This document shows, piece by piece, positions 35,397 through 45,707 of a stretch of 64,000 nt of DNA. The stretch is from Desulfosoma sp. (GTDB taxonomy: Bacteria; Desulfobacterota; Syntrophobacteria; Syntrophobacterales; DSM-9756). A program made the translations under genes and the position numbers. Numbering within the stretch: position 1 is the first letter of the stretch; each line of letters begins with the position of its first letter. The notes under the pieces are model-generated. The model saw nothing but the letters and a program-made list of their open reading frames with translations, did no database searches and was not told where the DNA came from. Where the stretch lies: NCBI GenBank assembly GCA_037481835.1, contig JBBFKW010000005.1, positions 64,001-128,000 of the forward strand, given 5' to 3'.

Positions 35397-37076
35397 TTAA
35401 GCGTAACGGTTGATCCAGTACTGCTGCACGATGGACAAGACATTGTTCACAAACCAATATAGCACGAGACCGGACGGAAAGTTGACAAAGAATACGGTGA
35501 AAATGACGGGCATCATGAGCATCATCTTTTCCTGTCTCGGATCTCCCGCCGAGGGCGTCATCTTCTGCTGAATGAACATACTTGCCCCCATGAGCAAGGT
35601 CAGAACCGGCACACCCCCCAGATAGGGGACGTCAAACCCGATGAACAACCGATCCGGAGCGGTCAGATCGTTGATCCACAGCCAGAACGGCTGGTGACGC
35701 AGCTCGATGGCGCCGTAGAGCATGCGGTAGAGGGCGAAGAACACGGGAATCTGAAGCACCATGGGCAGGCACCCTCCCAGGGGGTTCACCTTGTAGGTGC
35801 GGTAGAGCATCATGAGCTCTTGGTTGAGCTTTTCCCGGTCGTCTTTGTACTTTTCCCGGATCTGGGCCATCTTGGGCTGGATCTTCTTCATGACCTGCAT
35901 GGACTTGTAGCTCTTGTGCGTCAAAGGCCAGAAGAGGATTTTGATGATCACCGTCAGGATAATGATGGCCACCCCGTAATTGTGGGCATAGTTATAGAGC
36001 CATCGAAGGAAGATCAAGAGGGGTTTGGCCAGGAAGCTGAACCAGCCGAAATCCAAGGCGCGTTCCAGGCGGCTGTCAGCCCTTTTGAGGGCCTCCAGTT
36101 CCTTGGGACCCCAGTAGTAGGTGTTGGAAACCGTCACGGCGGCGCCCGGTGCCACCGTAAAGGGATCCGTCAGATAGACAAGCTGTACCAAACCCGAATC
36201 GGGGTCGAGCAGCCGAGGGGCCACCTGGAAATGGTCCTGCACGCCCGGCAGGACCGCCTGAATGAAGTAGTTGTTTTCATAGCCGATCCAATGCATGGGC
36301 GGTTTGAGAACGGGCGTTTCCTTCTTTAGGCTCTTTTGGTCGAATTTATCCAAAGAGCCGTTTTTGAACACGGTTACATGCGACATGTTGTAAGAGGATT
36401 CCACGCCGTCAAAGGGCATGGCATAGGAGCTGATTCCCAGCTGGTCGGTCAAAGGAGCCTCGGAAAGATTCTCCACGACGACCTCCACCCCTACGGCGTA
36501 GGTTTCGGGAGAAAAGCGCAGGAGCTTTCGCACGCGGACCGTTCCGGGGATTTCCGCAGAAAGAGTCACCGTCTTTTCCCCGTCGCCCGCATTGAGTCGC
36601 ATCTCCGCCGGCCCGTCACCGTCGTAGGGCATGGTGGCCAAGGGCCAGTCCTTGTGCTGAAGCAAATCCACGGCCAGCGGCAAATACCCCGCCCCCTTTG
36701 ACGGGATGAGGTCCATGAGGGGCGAGGCGGGGTCCACTTTTTGGCGGTGTTTTTTCAGCGTGAAACTTTCAATCCGGCCGCCTGCGGACGAAATCTTCGC
36801 CGTGTAAAGGGGGGTATCCACGACCCATGTCTTGGCCGTGGCCGCACCCGGCACGGCATGCTGCTGGGGCACGCTTTTCAGATCCACCGTCGTCTGGGTT
36901 TCCGAGGGGGTGAATGGAGCGGAGGGGGCCGGAGACGTTTGGGGTTGGGCCTGGGTCGCCGTTTGGGGCGCCGAAGGCTGCTTGGCTTTCCGAGAAGTAT
37001 CGGGGGAGAGGAAAATCTCCCAGAGAAACAAGACGGCCAAAGAGAGGGCAAACGCCAGCAAGGCTCGTTTTTCCAT
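35397..37076 (-). CDS. yidC: Membrane protein insertase
   Basis: DFGWF, NYGVAII, NPLGGCLP, GLVLYW. Confidence 0.95.
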   Translation of the reverse strand: MEKRALLAFALSLAVLFLWEIFLSPDTSRKAKQPSAPQTATQAQPQTSPAPSAPFTPSETQTTVDLKSVPQQHAVPGAATAKTWVVDTPLYTAKISSAGGRIESFTLKKHRQKVDPASPLMDLIPSKGAGYLPLAVDLLQHKDWPLATMPYDGDGPAEMRLNAGDGEKTVTLSAEIPGTVRVRKLLRFSPETYAVGVEVVVENLSEAPLTDQLGISSYAMPFDGVESSYNMSHVTVFKNGSLDKFDQKSLKKETPVLKPPMHWIGYENNYFIQAVLPGVQDHFQVAPRLLDPDSGLVQLVYLTDPFTVAPGAAVTVSNTYYWGPKELEALKRADSRLERALDFGWFSFLAKPLLIFLRWLYNYAHNYGVAIIILTVIIKILFWPLTHKSYKSMQVMKKIQPKMAQIREKYKDDREKLNQELMMLYRTYKVNPLGGCLPMVLQIPVFFALYRMLYGAIELRHQPFWLWINDLTAPDRLFIGFDVPYLGGVPVLTLLMGASMFIQQKMTPSAGDPRQEKMMLMMPVIFTVFFVNFPSGLVLYWFVNNVLSIVQQYWINRYA

Positions 37077-37081
37077 GAAGG

Positions 37082-37318
37082 TCACTCCGTTGACTTCCAA
37101 AATTTTTGCGGCACGGGATCGAACCCGCCGGGATGAAAAGGATGACACCTGAGAAGCCTCCAGGCCCCCAAGAGCACGCCGGCCATCGGGCCATGCTTTT
37201 CGATGGCTTCATAGGTGTATGCGGAACAGGACGGATAGAATCGACAGTGGGCTCCAAGAAGGGGAGAAAGACACTCTTGATAAATTTTCACAGCATACAA
37301 AAGCAGCCGTTTCATCAT
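37082..37318 (-). CDS. yidD: Membrane protein insertion efficiency factor
   Basis: CRFYPSCSAY, LLRCHPFHPGGFDPVP. Confidence 0.93.
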   Translation of the reverse strand: MMKRLLLYAVKIYQECLSPLLGAHCRFYPSCSAYTYEAIEKHGPMAGVLLGAWRLLRCHPFHPGGFDPVPQKFWKSTE

Positions 37319-37710
37319 GCCATTCGCAGACCGCCTTTCCTGAAACATTCCCGGAAAAGGTCGGCCAAGTGCGGTGTGGAGAAATGCTCCGCGCCGGGCC
37401 GGGCGATGACCACGATATCCAAGCCCGGCAAAGGGACAGTGTGCTTATGGAGCCGAAACCATTCGCGCAGGCGCCTCTTGATGCGGTTGCGCTGCACGGC
37501 CTTCCAGAACCGCTTTTCCACCACGAGACCCAGGCGGTGATGGCTGAGGCCGTTGGCGGCGATATTGACGAGGAACGCACCGCAGGGAAGGCGTCGGCCT
37601 TCCCTTTTCACTCGCAAGTACTCCGAACGCTTTCTCAGCCTTTCTTCCGGTCGAAAGGACCGCGGGCCGAACCCCGCCGCCGGTGCGACCGGTCTGTGTC
37701 CTTCGGGCAT
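37315..37710 (-). CDS. rnpA: Ribonuclease P protein component
   Basis: ERLRKRSEY, RLGLVV, AVQRNRIKRRLRE (RNR motif). Confidence 0.92.
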   Translation of the reverse strand: MPEGHRPVAPAAGFGPRSFRPEERLRKRSEYLRVKREGRRLPCGAFLVNIAANGLSHHRLGLVVEKRFWKAVQRNRIKRRLREWFRLHKHTVPLPGLDIVVIARPGAEHFSTPHLADLFRECFRKGGLRMA

Positions 37711-37844
37711 CACACAGAAAGGCGCTTTCGACCCTTGGCCCGCCGGCGATTGATGACGGCGCGACCCGACTTGGTGGCCATGCGGACCAAAAACCCGTGC
37801 GTGCGTTTTCTTCTCAAGTTGTGCGGCTGGAATGTGCGTTTCAT
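37710..37844 (-). CDS. rpmH: 50S ribosomal protein L34
   Basis: Hand translation [44 protein letters not shown]; below the ORF-track length cutoff. Confidence 0.97.
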
Positions 37845-37954
37845 GAATCTTTCCTTCCCCTTTCATCGCAATGTTTGGCGCGCGGGAAGCGCTCTTCCCC
37901 GCGTTTTGTCCCTTCGGGCGCACGTAAGCCTTTCGCTCTGGAAGCGAATTGTTG

Positions 37955-37984
37955 CTTATAGTCAAGGCCCCGATTCCTTGTCAA
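37955..37984 (-). promoter_or_regulatory. Putative sigma70 promoter of the rpmH operon
   Basis: Minus strand TTGACA-18 bp-TATAAG. Confidence 0.5.
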
Positions 37985-39783: not shown

Positions 39784-41055
39784 CTACCGGGGATAGGTTT
39801 CCTTCATGAAGGCCGTGCACGCCGTCGTCACGGCGGAGGCCGCCAGCAGCGCAAGGAGCATGGCGCTGTAGGCTTCCACGGGATAGCCCACACCGGGTTT
39901 TGCGCCGTAGGCATCCAGCAGCCGCCCCAAGAGGGGCATGGCTGCGGCACCCCCGAGAAAAGGAAAGAGGTTCAAAGCGCCCAAGCACGTTCCCGCAATG
40001 TCCGCCGGAAAGAGCTCCTTTGCGGCCGTGAAGGCCACCACCACAACCGAGGACGAGCTGATGGAAAAGAGGAAAAAAAACGCCGTGAGCAGCCCCACGG
40101 GGAGGCCCGATGGGAATCCGTAAAGGAACCCCAGTTCCACGGTCATCGTGACGGCGCACCCCACCAGGAGCTTTTTTCGGCTTTTGAGCACCCGGTCGGA
40201 AATGATGCCCATGAGCGGCCCGCCCACGATCATTCCCCAGGCGATGAGGCTCAAGACGGCTCCGGCCTTCTCGCGGCTCATGCCGTAGACGTGCATGAGG
40301 TAGGGACCGCTCCACAGGCCGCCGAAGCCGAAAAAGATTCCGTAATTTAAAAAACACCAGAGCGCAAAAACCCAAAACTGCCCCGATTGAAGCACGCGGC
40401 CGAGCCCCTGGAAAAGGGCCGACGCCCCGGGGTTGGATGCGGCGCCCGCGGCCGAGCGGTGCGGATTCTTCACCGGGAAGAGGCCCGTTTCTTCCGCGGG
40501 ACGATCCCGAACCACAAGCCACACCACAAGCGAAATGGCCGCGGTGAGCGCTCCGATCAACTGAAACGAGGTCCTCCAGCCCAAAACGCCCGCAAGCCAG
40601 GCAAGGAGCCAGGTGGCCGCCAAGATGCCCAGGCCCCCCACGGCGTTGAGCAGCCCCGAAACGGAGGCGAATTCGGTGGGGCGAAACCACTGGGCAAGAA
40701 TTTTCATCGTGGGGATAAAGACCATGGCCGCACCGATGCCCACCAGGAATCGGCCCGCGAACGCCCAGGAAAGCGACGGGGCCAGCCCGAAGAGCGCACT
40801 GCCCACCGCAGCGAGGATGGTGAAAAAGGCCACCGTCTTTCGAGGACCGAGGGAATCGGACAGGAGCCCGGCAGGGAATTGCATGAGGGCGTAACAATAA
40901 AAATAAACGGAGCCCAAGAGTCCCAAGGACCCCGCCGACGTCTGAAAAGCCCGGGACAGTTCTTCCGCCACCACTGTCAGGGAAAGCCGATGGAAATAAA
41001 CGAAGAGATACGCACAGGCCAAAGCACCGAAAATGAACCAGCGCTGATGCTTCAT
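39784..41055 (-). CDS. MFS transporter
   Basis: About 12 hydrophobic segments; GLLSDSLGPRK and GIISDRVLKSRK motif-A loops. Confidence 0.9.
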   Translation of the reverse strand: MKHQRWFIFGALACAYLFVYFHRLSLTVVAEELSRAFQTSAGSLGLLGSVYFYCYALMQFPAGLLSDSLGPRKTVAFFTILAAVGSALFGLAPSLSWAFAGRFLVGIGAAMVFIPTMKILAQWFRPTEFASVSGLLNAVGGLGILAATWLLAWLAGVLGWRTSFQLIGALTAAISLVVWLVVRDRPAEETGLFPVKNPHRSAAGAASNPGASALFQGLGRVLQSGQFWVFALWCFLNYGIFFGFGGLWSGPYLMHVYGMSREKAGAVLSLIAWGMIVGGPLMGIISDRVLKSRKKLLVGCAVTMTVELGFLYGFPSGLPVGLLTAFFFLFSISSSSVVVVAFTAAKELFPADIAGTCLGALNLFPFLGGAAAMPLLGRLLDAYGAKPGVGYPVEAYSAMLLALLAASAVTTACTAFMKETYPR

Positions 41056-41087: not shown

Positions 41088-41888
41088 CTAGAGCCGTTCC
41101 AAGTGTTCCGGAGGATCGGCCCCCGGCGGTCGGACCTTCCGTCGGACTTCCTCTCGCAGCTTTTCCATCTCCACGCCCGTGAGCTCCCGCTGCGGCGCCT
41201 CCAGGACCAGCGGGGCCTCCATGTGCGCGTAGACGGTCGTCCCGGTGAGGATGCCTCGTGTCTTGGTGACGATGTGTTGGAGCATCCATCCCGAATCGCC
41301 GATGAGCACGGCGAAGCAAAACGACCCGTAGACCGTCTCCAAAATCCGAGCCCGCGCGACGGGCCCATCGGTCAGGATCGTCACGGTCCCTTCCTTGAGT
41401 TTCTCGTCCTCGGGATCCCGGGCGGCGACCACCGTCAGGCCGTCGATGCGGATTTCCCTTTTGACTAGAGGGCGTCGCACCCGCGAGGCCACATAATCCA
41501 AAACCACCCGGTGATTGGCTTCATCCACGGGTGAGAACCCGTGATAGTTCAAGTCGCCGTGGGAATGAATCCACCCGTTGACGACCCATCCCGGCTGGAG
41601 TTCTTCGTGAAAGGCCAAAAGATCCCGACTGTCCAGGCTTGTGTATTGCTGCAAATTGGCGGCATTCCGCGGAAGCCCGATATCCCTGATGACCTCGGGA
41701 CGGTCTTCTTCCCCTAAAGTGAGCCCGTACCATTCGTAGCTTTCCCCGTAAAGCTCGCGCACCAGGGAGGAAACGGCCAAGGCCTTGCTGCGCGCATAGC
41801 CCGTCATGGTCACCCGATCGGGAAATCGGCCCAAGGGAATTTCCAGCAGGGACGGCCTTTTCAAATCGTTAAGTCTTTTCAGCTTCAT
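41088..41888 (-). CDS. JAB/MPN+ (JAMM) metalloprotease-like protein
   Basis: EWYGLTLG (cf. Rpn11 EVMGLMLG) and GWIHSHGDLNYHGFSPVD (HxH..SxxD). Confidence 0.72.
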   Translation of the reverse strand: MKLKRLNDLKRPSLLEIPLGRFPDRVTMTGYARSKALAVSSLVRELYGESYEWYGLTLGEEDRPEVIRDIGLPRNAANLQQYTSLDSRDLLAFHEELQPGWVVNGWIHSHGDLNYHGFSPVDEANHRVVLDYVASRVRRPLVKREIRIDGLTVVAARDPEDEKLKEGTVTILTDGPVARARILETVYGSFCFAVLIGDSGWMLQHIVTKTRGILTGTTVYAHMEAPLVLEAPQRELTGVEMEKLREEVRRKVRPPGADPPEHLERL

Positions 41889-41904: not shown

Positions 41905-43008
41905 TTAGGCCAAAGCCGCCTTGACCTGCATGGCGTTCACTTCGTAGTCGCCCGTATGGGTTCCGGGCAGAGAAAACATGGGCTCCAGAAGCACCCGATG
42001 GAGGATGCTCGTCAGTCCCCGCGCACCCACCCCTTCTTGTTCCGCCCGGCGTGCCACCTCCAAGACGGCCTCATCGGTAAAAATCAGCCGAATGCCCCAC
42101 GCTTCGAAGTCCTTGATGAAGGCTTGCAGCGGGCTGTCCTCGCTCTTGGTGAGAATGTCCCGAAGGTTGGCCGTGGTGAGCGCATTGTAGACCACGCGGA
42201 CGGGCAGCCGCGCCATGAGTTGCCGTTCCATGCCGTAGCGCACCAAATCGTCCGGCAGGAGGTGATCCCGCCACAGTCCCTTGATCCCGAGGCGCTCCAT
42301 GCGCTTTTGAACGATCTCTTCCAGCCCTTCAAAAGCCCCTCCGGCGATAAACAGGACGTGACGGGTAGACAGGGTGAGGCGGTCCTTTCCGAATTCGATG
42401 GTGTTTTCCATCCCCTCCAGCATCTTGAGGAGCCCTTTTTGGACGCCTTTTCCCGAAACATCTTTGGTCAGGGTCTTTTCCGAGGCGATCTTGTCGATCT
42501 CGTCAAGATAGACCATGCCCGTTTGCGCCGTCAGCGCATGCCCGCCCGCCGAAACCAGAAGGTCCACCAGAATGTCCGAAGTGCTCTGTCCCACGTAGCC
42601 TGTTTCGCTGAACTTGGTGAGGTCTTCCACGATGAAAGGGACCCCGACTAACCGCGACGCCACCTCGCACGTATAGGTTTTTCCGCAGCCCGTCGGCCCC
42701 ACGATGAGGATGTTGGCCTTGGGGGTCTTGACCCGCTGTAAGGCCTTTGCCACATCGCCGCCGCTGTGCGAGGCCGCTTCCTGTAAGGCCGCCCCCAAAC
42801 GGCGGTAGTGGTAGGCAATGGCGGTGGCCAGGATCTTTTTCCCCTTTTCCTGACCAATGACGTACCGGTCCATTTCGGCCTTGAGCTGCGACGGAGTCTT
42901 GTCGAAGCCGGCGATGTGTTCCACGGTCTGGGCGGTCTTTCGGTCCCGCACTCCGTCCATTTTTTCTTGGATCCTCAACCGGCTTTCAGGAGCCATGGGC
43001 TCAGCCAT
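41905..43008 (-). CDS. Divergent ClpX/HslU-clade AAA+ ATPase lacking the zinc-binding N-domain
   Basis: YVIGQ, GPTGCGKT, GYVG pore loop, YLDEIDKI, DVSGKGVQ, GGAFEGL, RLPV, GARGL. Confidence 0.88.
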   Translation of the reverse strand: MAEPMAPESRLRIQEKMDGVRDRKTAQTVEHIAGFDKTPSQLKAEMDRYVIGQEKGKKILATAIAYHYRRLGAALQEAASHSGGDVAKALQRVKTPKANILIVGPTGCGKTYTCEVASRLVGVPFIVEDLTKFSETGYVGQSTSDILVDLLVSAGGHALTAQTGMVYLDEIDKIASEKTLTKDVSGKGVQKGLLKMLEGMENTIEFGKDRLTLSTRHVLFIAGGAFEGLEEIVQKRMERLGIKGLWRDHLLPDDLVRYGMERQLMARLPVRVVYNALTTANLRDILTKSEDSPLQAFIKDFEAWGIRLIFTDEAVLEVARRAEQEGVGARGLTSILHRVLLEPMFSLPGTHTGDYEVNAMQVKAALA

Positions 43009-43447
43009 AGGACGCCTCCAGGGCCCGTTTCTTGGCGGCGTAAAACCGATAGAGAAAGGCATAGGAATAGCGCGAGAGCAGCCGCGGAGCGATATTGGGG
43101 TTGAGGGCGTAAAGCGGCCGGCACAGCAGAAGGTCTTCCGGGGTTTCGGCCCACGCACGGTAAGGGCCTTCAATGCGGGTGGCGATGGTCTCGACAATTG
43201 CATAGGATTCGGGAGGAACGAGCGCAAACAGGGGGACCGGAACGGGCGCCTTCCGAAGCGCTCCCTGGGCAAGAGCACGAGCCGCCGTCTCTGTCTCCGG
43301 CTCCTCGTCCAGCCGCCTCAGGAAATCTTTTCCGTCCACGCCGAAAGCCGTGAGGACGGACGCCACGCGGGTAAACGCGTCGGGTTGAAAAACCAGGGGC
43401 GTCTTGCCCTGTTCCCTGTGCTTTCGAATGGCATCCCTGATGGCCAT
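43001..43447 (-). CDS. Hypothetical protein (148 aa)
   Basis: Co-oriented ORF whose stop overlaps the ATPase start by 8 bp; no recognisable motif. Confidence 0.65.
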   Translation of the reverse strand: MAIRDAIRKHREQGKTPLVFQPDAFTRVASVLTAFGVDGKDFLRRLDEEPETETAARALAQGALRKAPVPVPLFALVPPESYAIVETIATRIEGPYRAWAETPEDLLLCRPLYALNPNIAPRLLSRYSYAFLYRFYAAKKRALEASYG

Positions 43448-43600
43448 GTCTTTTCCCCGGATGATTCCGTTATGCCGGCAGACGGCTTCCCATGCGGGCA
43501 GGGGCGACCCCACGACACCCTTTTAGTCGAAGCGCCTCCAGCCTATTCGCTCCGCCCCAAACCCTGTTTTCCGCCGGGTCGCTCCAGCCCCGTCTCGCAC

Positions 43601-44812
43601 TCACGAAAAGGCGTTGGTCACGGGAACTTCTCCGGAAAGGCAGCGCGGGTCGTCCGACGGGATCTTCAAGTCGTCGAAGTGAATATCTCCTTGGAAGCCG
43701 GAGAAGTGATCCAGTCGATGATAGCCGTTTCTTTTTCGGGGATCGTACCCGTGATACAAGGCGTTCAGGCCGTCTTCCAGCGACCGGATGATGTGAGCCG
43801 CCGTAAAGGTTCGCCCTGCCGGTGAGTGCCCGAGACAGATTCTCTGCCAGGGCTGATGGCGCGGCAAAAGAGGGTGCTTGTAGCTGTCCACGACCACGGG
43901 CCAGAGGTCCTGGGAAGTCACGGCCACGCGGCAATCGGGGAAAAGGTACAGCCGGTTGTAGTAATCCCTCAGAGCATATCGGCCGCTCCGCTTGTAGATC
44001 ACGAGCTCTCCGTCGGAAGCCCTTGCGAAAAAACCGAAGCCGTCCACTTCCAGAGCCCCTCGCGTGAGCACAAAGAGCATGAAGCCCAAGGCGGGCGCGG
44101 GCCAATCCCAATACGGGCGAAGCTTTTCCCGAAAATTTTCCTGTTCCTTCCCCAAAGCTTCACGCCACGCCATCTCTAAGGAAGCCTCCAGGTCCCTTTG
44201 CAGGGTCTCGGCTCCAACGATCCGCCTCCCGGCGTCGTCGCACCCTTCACGCCCAAAGGGGCCCGGAAGCTTGGGCACTCCACGTTCGACGTCTTGGCGC
44301 CGGATATCCACAGCCCACCGATGAAAGCGTTCCGGCACTCCGACCTTTTTTGAAAGCCACAAGGCCAGGGCTTGGGGTCTGTTTCCGGCCGATTTCACCC
44401 ACGCGGGCAGACGCACAAACCGGGGAAGCACCTGGAAAAGCGCGGTTTCCAGGTGGACCGTGTTTCCAAGGACGATCCGAGCTTTTCCCTTGCCGAAAAG
44501 ATCCCGGCAGACCTTTTTTCGAATCCCTGAGGCAAGCTGCGGGAAAAGCACGGGGGCGTGACGGACGAGCCCCTCCCATGCGATGGTTTCGATGTAAGGA
44601 ACCCCTTCATGGAAAACGACCTTCGGCCCGTGGACGCCCCTTTGAAAGACTCCGGCGAAAGCTCCGCCTTCGCCCGCCTTTCGAAGCTCCCGAGCGGTCT
44701 CGGGATCCATCGGGCATGGAAGATAGACGCTCCCGCCCTTGAAAAGGACTCTGTGGTCTTGGAGATCGTCAAAAAATCTTGAGAAATGGTTTTTCTTCAC
44801 CCGGCTTTTCAT
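43601..44812 (-). CDS. Hypothetical protein with putative C-terminal E2/UBC-like domain
   Basis: Beta-rich segment, then YKHPLLPRHQPWQRICLG, then a helix (IIRSLEDGLNALY). ATGA overlap with the upstream gene. Confidence 0.55.
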   Translation of the reverse strand: MKSRVKKNHFSRFFDDLQDHRVLFKGGSVYLPCPMDPETARELRKAGEGGAFAGVFQRGVHGPKVVFHEGVPYIETIAWEGLVRHAPVLFPQLASGIRKKVCRDLFGKGKARIVLGNTVHLETALFQVLPRFVRLPAWVKSAGNRPQALALWLSKKVGVPERFHRWAVDIRRQDVERGVPKLPGPFGREGCDDAGRRIVGAETLQRDLEASLEMAWREALGKEQENFREKLRPYWDWPAPALGFMLFVLTRGALEVDGFGFFARASDGELVIYKRSGRYALRDYYNRLYLFPDCRVAVTSQDLWPVVVDSYKHPLLPRHQPWQRICLGHSPAGRTFTAAHIIRSLEDGLNALYHGYDPRKRNGYHRLDHFSGFQGDIHFDDLKIPSDDPRCLSGEVPVTNAFS

Positions 44813-45207
44813 CGCCCTTTCTCGCAAACATGAACCGGGGCGGGAAAGCCTCCCTCCTGGGGCCTTAGAGCCCTTACGGCCACGTAATAATACTTTTCAC
44901 CCTCATCGGTTTCTTCCACCCGGGCCCGTTCCAGGGGATCTCCCTCAATGGGCCGTCCTGCACACAAAAGGACCCCTCTTTCCATCTGCAGGAGAATGTC
45001 CTCGAGAATTTCCCGCTCTTCAATGGAGAGGTCCTGTCTCGCGAGAATCACGTCTACCAGCTCTTGGAGCGTCTTGCCTTCATAAGTTCCCGGCTCGAAG
45101 ACCTCCAGAAGTCCCTCGGCCGCCTGCCCCGGAAGGATTTCCACCACGAGAGGCACCGGCAATTTCCGCCGTTCCTTTTCTTTTTCCTCAAGAACCCGAA
45201 TCGTCAT
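44809..45207 (-). CDS. Putative ubiquitin-like (beta-grasp) protein with masked C-terminal GG
   Basis: KTLQELV helix start, VLLCAGRPIE (cf. ubiquitin RLIFAGKQLE), YVAVRALRPQEGG plus a 12-aa tail. Confidence 0.55.
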   Translation of the reverse strand: MTIRVLEEKEKERRKLPVPLVVEILPGQAAEGLLEVFEPGTYEGKTLQELVDVILARQDLSIEEREILEDILLQMERGVLLCAGRPIEGDPLERARVEETDEGEKYYYVAVRALRPQEGGFPAPVHVCEKGR

Positions 45208-45707
45208 CTTAGGCCCCGATTGTTTCGCGGTTTTTCTGTTATTTTGACATGGAATTTTAAGAAGTCAAAAACCGGCGACAGGCCCCTGCACAAAGGGCGG
45301 GTCTTTGCTTTGACAATCTTGAAGGAGCCGCCTTGCAGGCCATGGGATTCGCGGCAAAGCCCGATCCCATCCTTGGAGCTTTTCGGGGCTGTCGGAGCCT
45401 GTTCGGCGACACTGGATTCCCGGGCACGCCCTATCCTACGCAGGAAGGTCCCTGACCGGGGCAAGCCCTGTCGTCCGGCGGGCGGATCTTCACAGTGCCT
45501 CGGGCATGCCGGCCCGCCACATGAGGCATGCCGATGAGGACCATTATGGGGGTGCCGTTTTTCACCCGTGCGGGGCACATTCCCCCGCCAGGCCTCGTGC
45601 GTCGCAGGACTTCCCGGCCGCATTCCTCCCCCGGGCGCTTTGACATCCACACTCCCGACGAGTGTCCGGAGCCATCTCAGGCATGGATCTTCGGGGATGC
45701 GCGCGTC

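Follow-up and report, generated by a model that had tools for sequence, protein, structure and literature searches.

The stretch of DNA analysed here (the window) is 64,000 nucleotides (nt) long, belongs to the genome of a Desulfosoma sp. (GenBank assembly GCA_037481835.1, contig JBBFKW010000005.1, positions 64,001 to 128,000) and contains five genes on the same strand whose ends overlap or nearly abut (Table 1). In the order of this cassette, the genes encode a putative ubiquitin-like (Ubl) tag, an E2-like protein, a small protein called p170, a ClpX-like AAA+ ATPase (ClpXL, referred to below as the ATPase) and a predicted JAMM metallopeptidase; a gene for a ThiF-type E1 is usually associated with them. 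None of the four cassette neighbours of the ATPase was recognised by Pfam, NCBIfam or PADLOC. The ATPase gene had been singled out as a ClpX paralogue in an earlier interpretation made from the letters alone (the sequence-only reading); the open reading frame (ORF) is real, its start had been placed correctly and the observation held in every detail. The longest frame spans positions 41905-43278 and corresponds to 457 amino acids (aa). Since almost all of the best 120 database relatives, with identities of 61-94%, are 363-388 aa long (mostly 367) and align from the Met at 43008, that Met was taken as the start.

Table 1. Features of the cassette and its upstream region in the window
Feature	Position	Strand	Length	Characteristics
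ClpX-like AAA+ ATPase (ClpXL)	41905..43008	(-)	367 aa	ATPase and pore loops complete; zinc domain, RKH loop and IGF loop gone
JAMM/MPN+ metallopeptidase (predicted)	41088..41888	(-)	266 aa	invariant E52 (EWYG), H108-S-H110, S119, D122
Putative ubiquitin-like tag precursor	44809..45207	(-)	132 aa	invariant ...RPQEGG core end, GG at 119-120, 12-residue non-conserved tail
E2-like protein	43601..44827	(-)	408 aa	UBC-like domain at ~residues 244-390; ~240-aa N-terminal region unmatched
p170	43001..43447	(-)	148 aa	small, poorly conserved, no known family; Met aligned to orthologue starts
Candidate sigma-70-type promoter	45241..45268	(-)		TTGACT-16-CAAAAT with TG, ~34 nt upstream of tag ATG; positional hint only

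Conservation of the cassette

Among 16 loci from genomes of the same taxonomic order, 12 carried all five genes in order, two were cut by contig ends and two were without the ATPase. A survey of public data, restricted to one genome per species, gave 80 loci that overlap with these 16, and 64 of them were informative in that at least 3 kilobases (kb) of DNA followed the 408-aa gene on its downstream side. Of these 64 loci, 58 carried the ATPase together with JAMM, two had JAMM only and four had neither; in 68 of the 70 loci with enough upstream DNA, the cassette began with the tag gene. Judging from the record titles, the loci come from Thermodesulfobacteriota (Desulfobacca, Syntrophobacterales, Desulfobacterales and Desulfarculales), Binatia, Methylomirabilota, Acidobacteriota, Nitrospiraceae and Acidithiobacillales. 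The stop codon of the ATPase gene and the start codon of the JAMM gene overlap by 4 nt in 59/64 loci and by 1 nt in 4/64, a pattern that is typical of co-translated partners. When 61 relatives were compared, orthologues of JAMM and of the E1 occurred in an identical set of 17 genomes, and the ATPase was present in 16 of these 17 and in one of the other 44, there as an orphan; the relatives being kin, the counts are not independent and statistics based on them are overstated.

From gene order and co-occurrence, the ATPase almost certainly belongs to the cassette. One could still suppose that it is a general ClpP-independent chaperone paralogue which merely happens to lie beside a Ubl operon, as the flanks of the cassette in the window are of a housekeeping nature (malQ, a transporter of the major facilitator superfamily (MFS) and yidC nearby) and do not resemble a defence island. 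In one relative, G022, whose genome is 98% complete, the ATPase does stand alone among housekeeping genes (G022:C174, L159), and the JAMM, E1 and E2-like genes were looked for in that genome with none being found. However, the linkage to the cassette in the great majority of informative loci, from several phyla, the 4-nt overlap with JAMM and the distribution among the relatives with and without JAMM and E1, even if kinship inflates the latter, all speak against such a coincidence. Because of this linkage, a chance neighbourhood is very unlikely, and we give this explanation hardly any weight.

A remodelled ClpX-like ATPase

Pfam assigns AAA_2 (7.6e-19), AAA and the ClpB_D2-small lid to the ATPase. 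The NCBIfam ClpX models TIGR00382 and NF003745 gave 268.5 and 235.2 bits, under their equivalog cut-offs of 359 and 370.75, respectively; with the NCBIfam HslU model, 152 bits were obtained and the cut-off of 362 was not reached. The PADLOC defence models gave weak P-loop matches and nothing stronger. In a comparison of a profile of 63 ATPase orthologues with the sequences of solved structures, ClpX came first (1um8, 254 bits) and HslU second (171 bits).

The ATPase is an extra copy in its genome, which is 99.4% complete. A canonical clpP (C3:242731-243270) adjoins a clpX whose product scores 665 bits with the NCBIfam ClpX model, and hslV (C10:121557-122069) adjoins hslU, again on a contig other than that of the window. 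A third ClpX-like gene, on contig C4 (G000:C4:168865-169962, L002:1276-3153), has a frame of 625 aa and codes for a paralogue of ~600 aa that is devoid of the zinc domain, carries VGF at the site of the IGF loop and has a C-terminal extension of ~200 aa. This long paralogue was detected in all 13 relatives searched, where it scored 295-315 bits with the ClpX model, and it makes up a separate clade; canonical ClpX was likewise present in 13/13, and the short ATPase occurred only in the four genomes of this genus. In a quick IQ-TREE search with 50 rows, where HslU was a single long branch, the short ATPase type formed a clade of its own on a long stem (23 rows, support of 99 in the Shimodaira-Hasegawa-like approximate likelihood ratio test, SH-aLRT), and the canonical ClpX clade (95) and the clade of the ~600-aa paralogue (98) were each separate from it. 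The sequence-only reading was right that neither clpP nor hslV lies in the window, both being encoded elsewhere in the genome. The opposite case that it had considered, namely that this gene is the only ClpX of the genome, fails given the clpP-clpX pair, hslVU and the third ClpX-like gene.

The motifs of the ATPase were compared with those of the canonical ClpX of the same genome (L001:1468-2724), to which it is 36% identical, and across an alignment of 63 orthologues (A8). In common with canonical ClpX (PDB 1um8 and 6wr2), whose AAA+ subfamily it shares by sequence, the ATPase has Walker A (GPTGCGKT, residues 104-111), Walker B (YLDEID, 167-172), the pore-1 loop (GYVGQ, 137-141), the pore-2 region (DVSGKGVQ, 183-190, corresponding to DVSGxGVQ), the Arg finger and sensor-2 (GARGL, 328-332). 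The patterns GP[TSP]G[CV]GKT, Y[LFI]DExD, GYVG and GARGL are present in 63/63 orthologues. Since the motor motifs are intact, the ATPase is predicted to hydrolyse ATP and to translocate polypeptide.

Whereas canonical ClpX has a zinc-binding N-domain, an RKH loop and an IGF loop, the ATPase has none of the three, and its gene does not adjoin clpP. The C4 zinc domain, represented by CSFC...CDEC in the canonical protein, is gone, and no Cys precedes residue 47 in any of the 63 orthologues. A 7-residue deletion lies opposite canonical GGRKHPQQEF, the RKH motif being found in 0/63 orthologues, and a 13-residue deletion opposite canonical GLGFAADIKSKDEKNVG leaves RMERLGIKG (236-244) as a remnant; in 63/63 orthologues the site of the IGF loop is a short segment of 14 residues without any [ILMV]GF. 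In turn, the ATPase possesses an N-terminal segment of its own of ~45 residues, common to all orthologues, and an insert of 10 residues ahead of Walker A, both of which are lacking in canonical ClpX. Its C-terminus is variable and not HslU-like. The sequence-only reading had named the intact Walker A/B, GYVG and DVSG..VQ motifs, the missing C4 zinc domain and GGRKH, the docking loop shortened to RMERLGIKG and the non-HslU-like C-terminus, and each of these points was borne out by the alignment with the genome's own ClpX or by the orthologues, or by both.

ClpX binds to ClpP through its IGF loop, and its zinc domain and RKH loop provide the usual contacts with adaptors and the ssrA tag. With the loss of the former, the ClpP-docking element has been removed from the ATPase, and with that of the latter the usual adaptor and ssrA-tag contacts. 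The ATPase very probably works without ClpP. It could also be that the ATPase continues to supply substrates to a protease, in a tag-and-degrade scheme like that of Pup, Mpa and the proteasome. The protease might be ClpP or HslV, reached by a contact other than the IGF loop, or a peptidase that was not recognised. Although ClpP and HslV are encoded in the genome and the translocation pore loops are intact in the orthologues, the shortened loop site offers no IGF-type motif in any orthologue, and the C-terminus does not have the HslU form. As for other peptidases, a protein with a metallo-β-lactamase fold and TPR is encoded beside the cassette in 17/80 loci, but in the window's genome it is found with its two companion genes on another contig, and the cassette conserves no peptidase apart from JAMM. 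We consider a protease-feeding role improbable. Judged by its motifs and gene context, the ATPase represents a new branch within the ClpX family, remodelled and dedicated to a conjugation cassette resembling the bacterial Bil operons discussed below.

Putative tagging proteins and neighbouring genes

The 266-aa protein was identified as a JAMM protein by fold search, where sequence searches gave nothing: Pfam and NCBIfam had no match, and the best hit of a profile against PDB sequences was an Rpn11-like protein at E=1.3. With an AlphaFold2 (AF2) model, for which the predicted local distance difference test (pLDDT) is 84.7, Foldseek returned 58 PDB matches at E<=0.001, and those listed are MPN/JAMM proteins or complexes with MPN subunits, including BRCC36, Rpn11/Rpn8, CSN, eIF3, the Caldiarchaeum Rpn11 homologue and PfJAMM1. 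VIA-align gave Z-scores of 14.5 to Pyrococcus PfJAMM1 (5ld9) and to BRCC36, 13.7 to Rpn11, 13.1 to the Caldiarchaeum Rpn11 homologue, 11.4 to the MPN domain of Npl4, 11.1 to a bacterial Ubl-deubiquitinase (8tyy_B) and 10.9 to Cap3. The E...HxH...S..D site is intact, and its five residues (Table 1) are invariant in 60 sequences (A7). On the predicted model, the protein is a JAMM/MPN+ peptidase with an Rpn11/BRCC36-like fold.

The 408-aa protein is probably, though not proven to be, an E2 enzyme with a UBC fold, to judge from its model. In an alignment of 97 sequences (A6), Y316, P319 and C331 are the only invariant residues, with H318 and I330 near-invariant (YKHPxL...QxIC); we take this HP...x...IC arrangement to resemble the HPN...C site of E2 enzymes. 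The AF2 model (pLDDT 90.3, predicted template modelling score (pTM) 0.84) was compared by VIA-align with 48,161 chains, and E2, UEV or RWD proteins make up the majority of the 50 rows listed, among them Pex4p, Ube2K, Cap2 (7to3) and BubB (9eav_D), at middling Z-scores of at most 5.0. In an Atlas feature search the protein fell beside Prok-E2_D clusters (0.92-0.93); a sequence profile against PDB sequences produced only coiled-coil noise. The family is small, with 206 representatives at E<=0.001 among 1.84 billion.

The sixth member of the cassette, which lies outside the window, was found by clustering the ORFs of the loci. It is a ThiF-family E1 of ~413 aa, for which Pfam gives ThiF at 3e-30 over residues 208-398 of a 413-aa orthologue, and a second glycine-rich Rossmann-like stretch can be discerned by eye in the N-terminal half. 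Flanks long enough to judge its presence were available in 49 loci, and 45 of these had the E1; when all loci were counted, it was positioned downstream of JAMM in 43 and upstream of the tag in 16. In the window's own genome, an orthologue of 471 aa (1.4e-79) is located at C4:1090-2505 (L129:1090-2505), flanked by genes for an ammonium transporter and a 3-hydroxyacyl-CoA dehydrogenase, and in 4/4 genomes of the genus the E1 has been kept but is unlinked to the cassette. In the window, a 423-aa ORF at 39784-41055 (-), by eye an MFS-type transporter, starts on the same strand 32 nt after the JAMM stop and occupies the position held by the E1 in other lineages.

The 132-aa protein is a candidate Ubl-type tag. 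Residues R112, P116, Q117, E118, G119 and G120 are invariant in 64 sequences (A9), and past QEGG the tail measures 0 aa in 9/61 orthologues and 1-30 aa in 52/61. A homologue search gave 949 relatives; none of the 120 listed has a name or a Pfam domain. The Pfam ThiS model matched two other genes of the same genome and not the tag gene. A ThiS/MoaD-family gene ending in GGG is found just before the window, a few hundred bases upstream of its start (G000:C5:63739-63915), and has no sequence relation to the cassette tag. A second ORF that clusters with the tag family lies between JAMM and E1 in two loci (L054:9925-10383 and L105:9849-10484).

The longest ORF for p170 starts at 43513, and its start was set to 43447 by alignment; its end overlaps the ATPase start by 8 nt. 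Mean column identity in the p170 alignment (A4) is 34%, with a core of ...NPYLxFAxSPEEILLS...LNPSI.... The Atlas yielded no family for p170, with values of at most 0.84, and a profile against the PDB gave a single doubtful match, bL20c, at E=0.0099.

Taken as a whole, the cassette is apparently a conserved, so far undescribed bacterial operon for ubiquitin-like tagging, and together with the E1, which this genome encodes on another contig, it would represent a putative complete E1-E2-tag-JAMM conjugation system, a point that had escaped the sequence-only reading.

A number of further observations concern the surroundings of the cassette. The promoter scan returned one site in 6.5 kb (the candidate in Table 1) against 0.8 expected from shuffles, which is chance level, and terminator counts in the cassette region were no higher than chance. 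Among the 15 sequencing runs returned by a search for expression, no RNA run was listed. A trio of genes, two small ones (c21 and c19) and that for the metallo-β-lactamase-fold/TPR protein mentioned above, lies beside the cassette in loci of the range L050-L128 (e.g., L053:867-3034); the trio of the window's genome is at C3:70977-73171. In 21/80 loci there is a gene for c14, a coiled-coil-like protein of ~90-110 aa with a conserved ...PW...LWG end (e.g., L054:7208-7528 and L059:5831-6100), which is placed either with the E1 or between the E2-like and p170 genes; tblastn at E<=1e-4 found no c14 in the window's genome, and Pfam assigned no family to c14, c19 or c21. Downstream of the cassette, ORFs at 35397-37965 (-) resemble, by eye, yidC (583-aa frame), yidD (88 aa) and rnpA. 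In genome G052 (G052:C16, L035 and L160), the E2-like gene contains an in-frame TGA and the cassette is broken, p170 and the ATPase having been relocated as a pair to another site, which lies ~210 kb away and close to an E1 fragment. In G031 (L044), the cassette is without the ATPase.

A possible link between tagging and unfolding

Sequence features, gene linkage and, in predicted models, the folds of two partners of the ATPase are what the present analysis shows. Our preferred reading, which we regard as moderately probable, is that the ATPase is a ClpP-independent unfoldase which would act with JAMM on proteins carrying the Ubl tag, so that a motor would have been added to a Bil-like pathway. 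For the specific part of this reading in which the ATPase unfolds tagged targets together with the JAMM peptidase, we consider the chance to be even or slightly better. The sequence-only reading had proposed either a protease-independent unfoldase or one whose partner is unusual, for instance the Ubl tag or the JAMM protein, and comparative genomics strongly backs this second idea through the joint occurrence of ATPase and JAMM (58/64 loci), their 4-nt overlap (59/64) and the missing IGF motif (63/63 orthologues).

In the following scheme, the physical interactions are all inferred, as are the order in which the pathway runs and what becomes of the protein once it is unfolded. JAMM would first trim the variable tail of the small tag, exposing the invariant Gly-Gly end, and the putatively two-repeat ThiF-type E1, encoded on another contig in this genus, would adenylate the tag, which may then be handed via the invariant Cys of the 408-aa E2-like protein to target proteins. 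The ClpX-like hexamer would engage the tagged proteins, probably by its own N-terminal segment and/or by p170, which is perhaps an adaptor of the ATPase, and would unfold or extract them without ClpP. JAMM, presumably co-translated with the ATPase, would finally remove the tag, following the logic of Rpt/Rpn11 or Cdc48/Npl4. More tentatively, and with the balance somewhat against it, one could picture a tag-unfold-untag machine in bacteria, where E1 and E2 mark proteins with a Gly-Gly-ended tag and a ClpX-derived hexamer with an Rpn11-like JAMM at its mouth recognises this tag, unfolds the marked proteins and recycles the tag.

Another possibility is that the ATPase services the cassette itself, chaperoning and regulating the conjugation machinery, and that tagged targets are not its substrates. 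Its task might be to strip or unfold the precursor of the tag so that JAMM can mature it, to take apart oligomers of the tag or E1:E2:tag complexes, or to recover intermediates that have reached a dead end. The gene linkage is equal to that behind the preferred reading, and the variable C-terminal tails of the tags need removal; yet the tags that end exactly at GG require no maturation and are nonetheless part of full cassettes. Bil E1 and E2 are soluble only in complex with the Ubl, according to the part of PMC10557695 covered here, and filaments are formed by many bacterial Ubls, according to the corresponding part of PMC11601603, both of which are compatible with a servicing role. Similarly, the loci L072 and L128 (2/64) have kept the tag, E2-like protein, JAMM and E1 without the ATPase, as would fit an accessory function. 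On the other hand, the ATPase exceeds all other cassette proteins in conservation, with 57-64% identity across phyla as compared with ~30% for the E2-like protein, and this is more in keeping with a general motor than with a regulator tuned to its lineage. We regard the servicing role as unlikely.

Several observations weigh against the preferred reading, in which the ATPase unfolds tagged proteins with JAMM. The window's own copies of the ATPase and JAMM genes show no overlap, a spacer of 16 nt lying between them. The ATPase occurs without its partners in G022, and the partners without the ATPase in L072 and L128, as described above; also, JAMM is the sole peptidase conserved within the cassette. 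With regard to the E2-like protein, the match to the E2 fold is weak (Z at most 5.0), Foldseek on the PDB gave nothing at E<=0.001, with E2S at rank 27, and Pfam had no match among 15 orthologues and 24 distant relatives. For the tag, a Pfam scan of 64 orthologues gave chance-level matches only, a profile against PDB sequences gave nothing meaningful, and hhalign against a ThiS/MoaD alignment (25 genes of relatives) returned a probability of 0.4%.

The cassette has the order tag, E2, JAMM and E1 in common with BilABCD operons of types I and II, as these are described in the covered parts of PMC10557695 and PMC11601603. Type II BilA Ubls have a conserved C-terminal Gly followed by non-conserved residues (PMC10557695, in part); Bil Ubls, in the passages covered, are Gly-ended with a tail, and so is the cassette tag, in which GG is invariant in 64 sequences. 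From the same portions of PMC10557695 and PMC11601603, the Bil E1 carries an extra N-terminal Rossmann-like repeat ahead of ThiF, and to judge by eye the cassette E1 may be alike. The predicted JAMM model matches the bacterial Ubl-deubiquitinase complex 8tyy_B (see above). Whereas Bil operons consist of four genes, the cassette adds p170 and the ATPase between E2 and JAMM, and its E2-like protein, with 408 aa, a ~240-aa N-terminal region and an HP...C site, is unlike the Bil E2. BilB has a conserved His a few residues past the catalytic Cys, according to the part of PMC10557695 consulted, but the E2-like protein is without it: in the alignment of 97 sequences, no position past C331 holds a His that is invariant or >=90% conserved. 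The cassette tag, E2-like protein and JAMM are all missed by Pfam and PADLOC models, so that existing profiles overlook the cassette.

By analogy, the arrangement would share the logic of the 26S base-lid (Rpt ring and Rpn11) and of Cdc48-Npl4, in that a Ub-type tag is combined with a hexameric AAA+ translocase and an MPN/JAMM protein at the entrance. The archaeal Caldiarchaeum operon encodes Ub, E1, E2 and Rpn11, and it is this Rpn11 homologue that the JAMM model matches at the Z-score given above. However, Rpt and Cdc48 belong to the classical AAA clade, whereas the cassette motor is of the ClpX clade and has no 20S-type peptidase linked to it; a complex of the cassette ATPase with JAMM is suggested by the overlap of their genes. 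In Actinobacteria, the Pup-Mpa-proteasome system also combines a small tag, whose C-terminus contains Gly-Gly, with a dedicated AAA+ unfoldase. Pup is ligated by a glutamine-synthetase-like ligase and not by E1/E2, and Mpa docks on the 20S proteasome. The coupling of a small tag to an AAA+ unfoldase can be likened to that proposed for the cassette, although no homology to the cassette proteins was seen.

No description of a ClpX-like or AAA+ gene in a Ubl/E2/JAMM operon was found in the full-text literature, subscription journals and supplements being outside the scope of this search. The covered parts of the Bil papers PMC10557695 and PMC11601603 contain no mention of an ATPase (0 occurrences), and AAA or ClpX likewise has 0 occurrences in Iyer et al. 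2006 (PMC1779556). Conjugation of bacterial Ubls has been called an unlikely degradation signal (PMC11601603, in the part covered).

The cassette suggests that some bacteria couple Ubl-type tagging to ATP-driven unfolding. Protein conjugation by bacterial E1/E2/Ubl/JAMM operons (Bil, Bub and type II CBASS, the cyclic-oligonucleotide-based antiphage signalling system) was shown only recently, and a predicted ClpX-family unfoldase hard-wired to a JAMM protein provides a six-protein system in which the link between tagging and unfolding may be studied. It also illustrates how a ClpX may be rebuilt for a new job, with the zinc domain, RKH and IGF loops lost and a new N-terminal segment gained. In addition, names can now be offered for protein families which the databases and profile libraries searched leave uncharacterised or generically named. 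If the more tentative picture of a tag-unfold-untag machine is true, the cassette would be a bacterial counterpart, and possibly an independent invention, of the proteasome regulatory particle or of Cdc48-Npl4, and bacterial Ubl conjugation would be able to signal the unfolding or removal of proteins.

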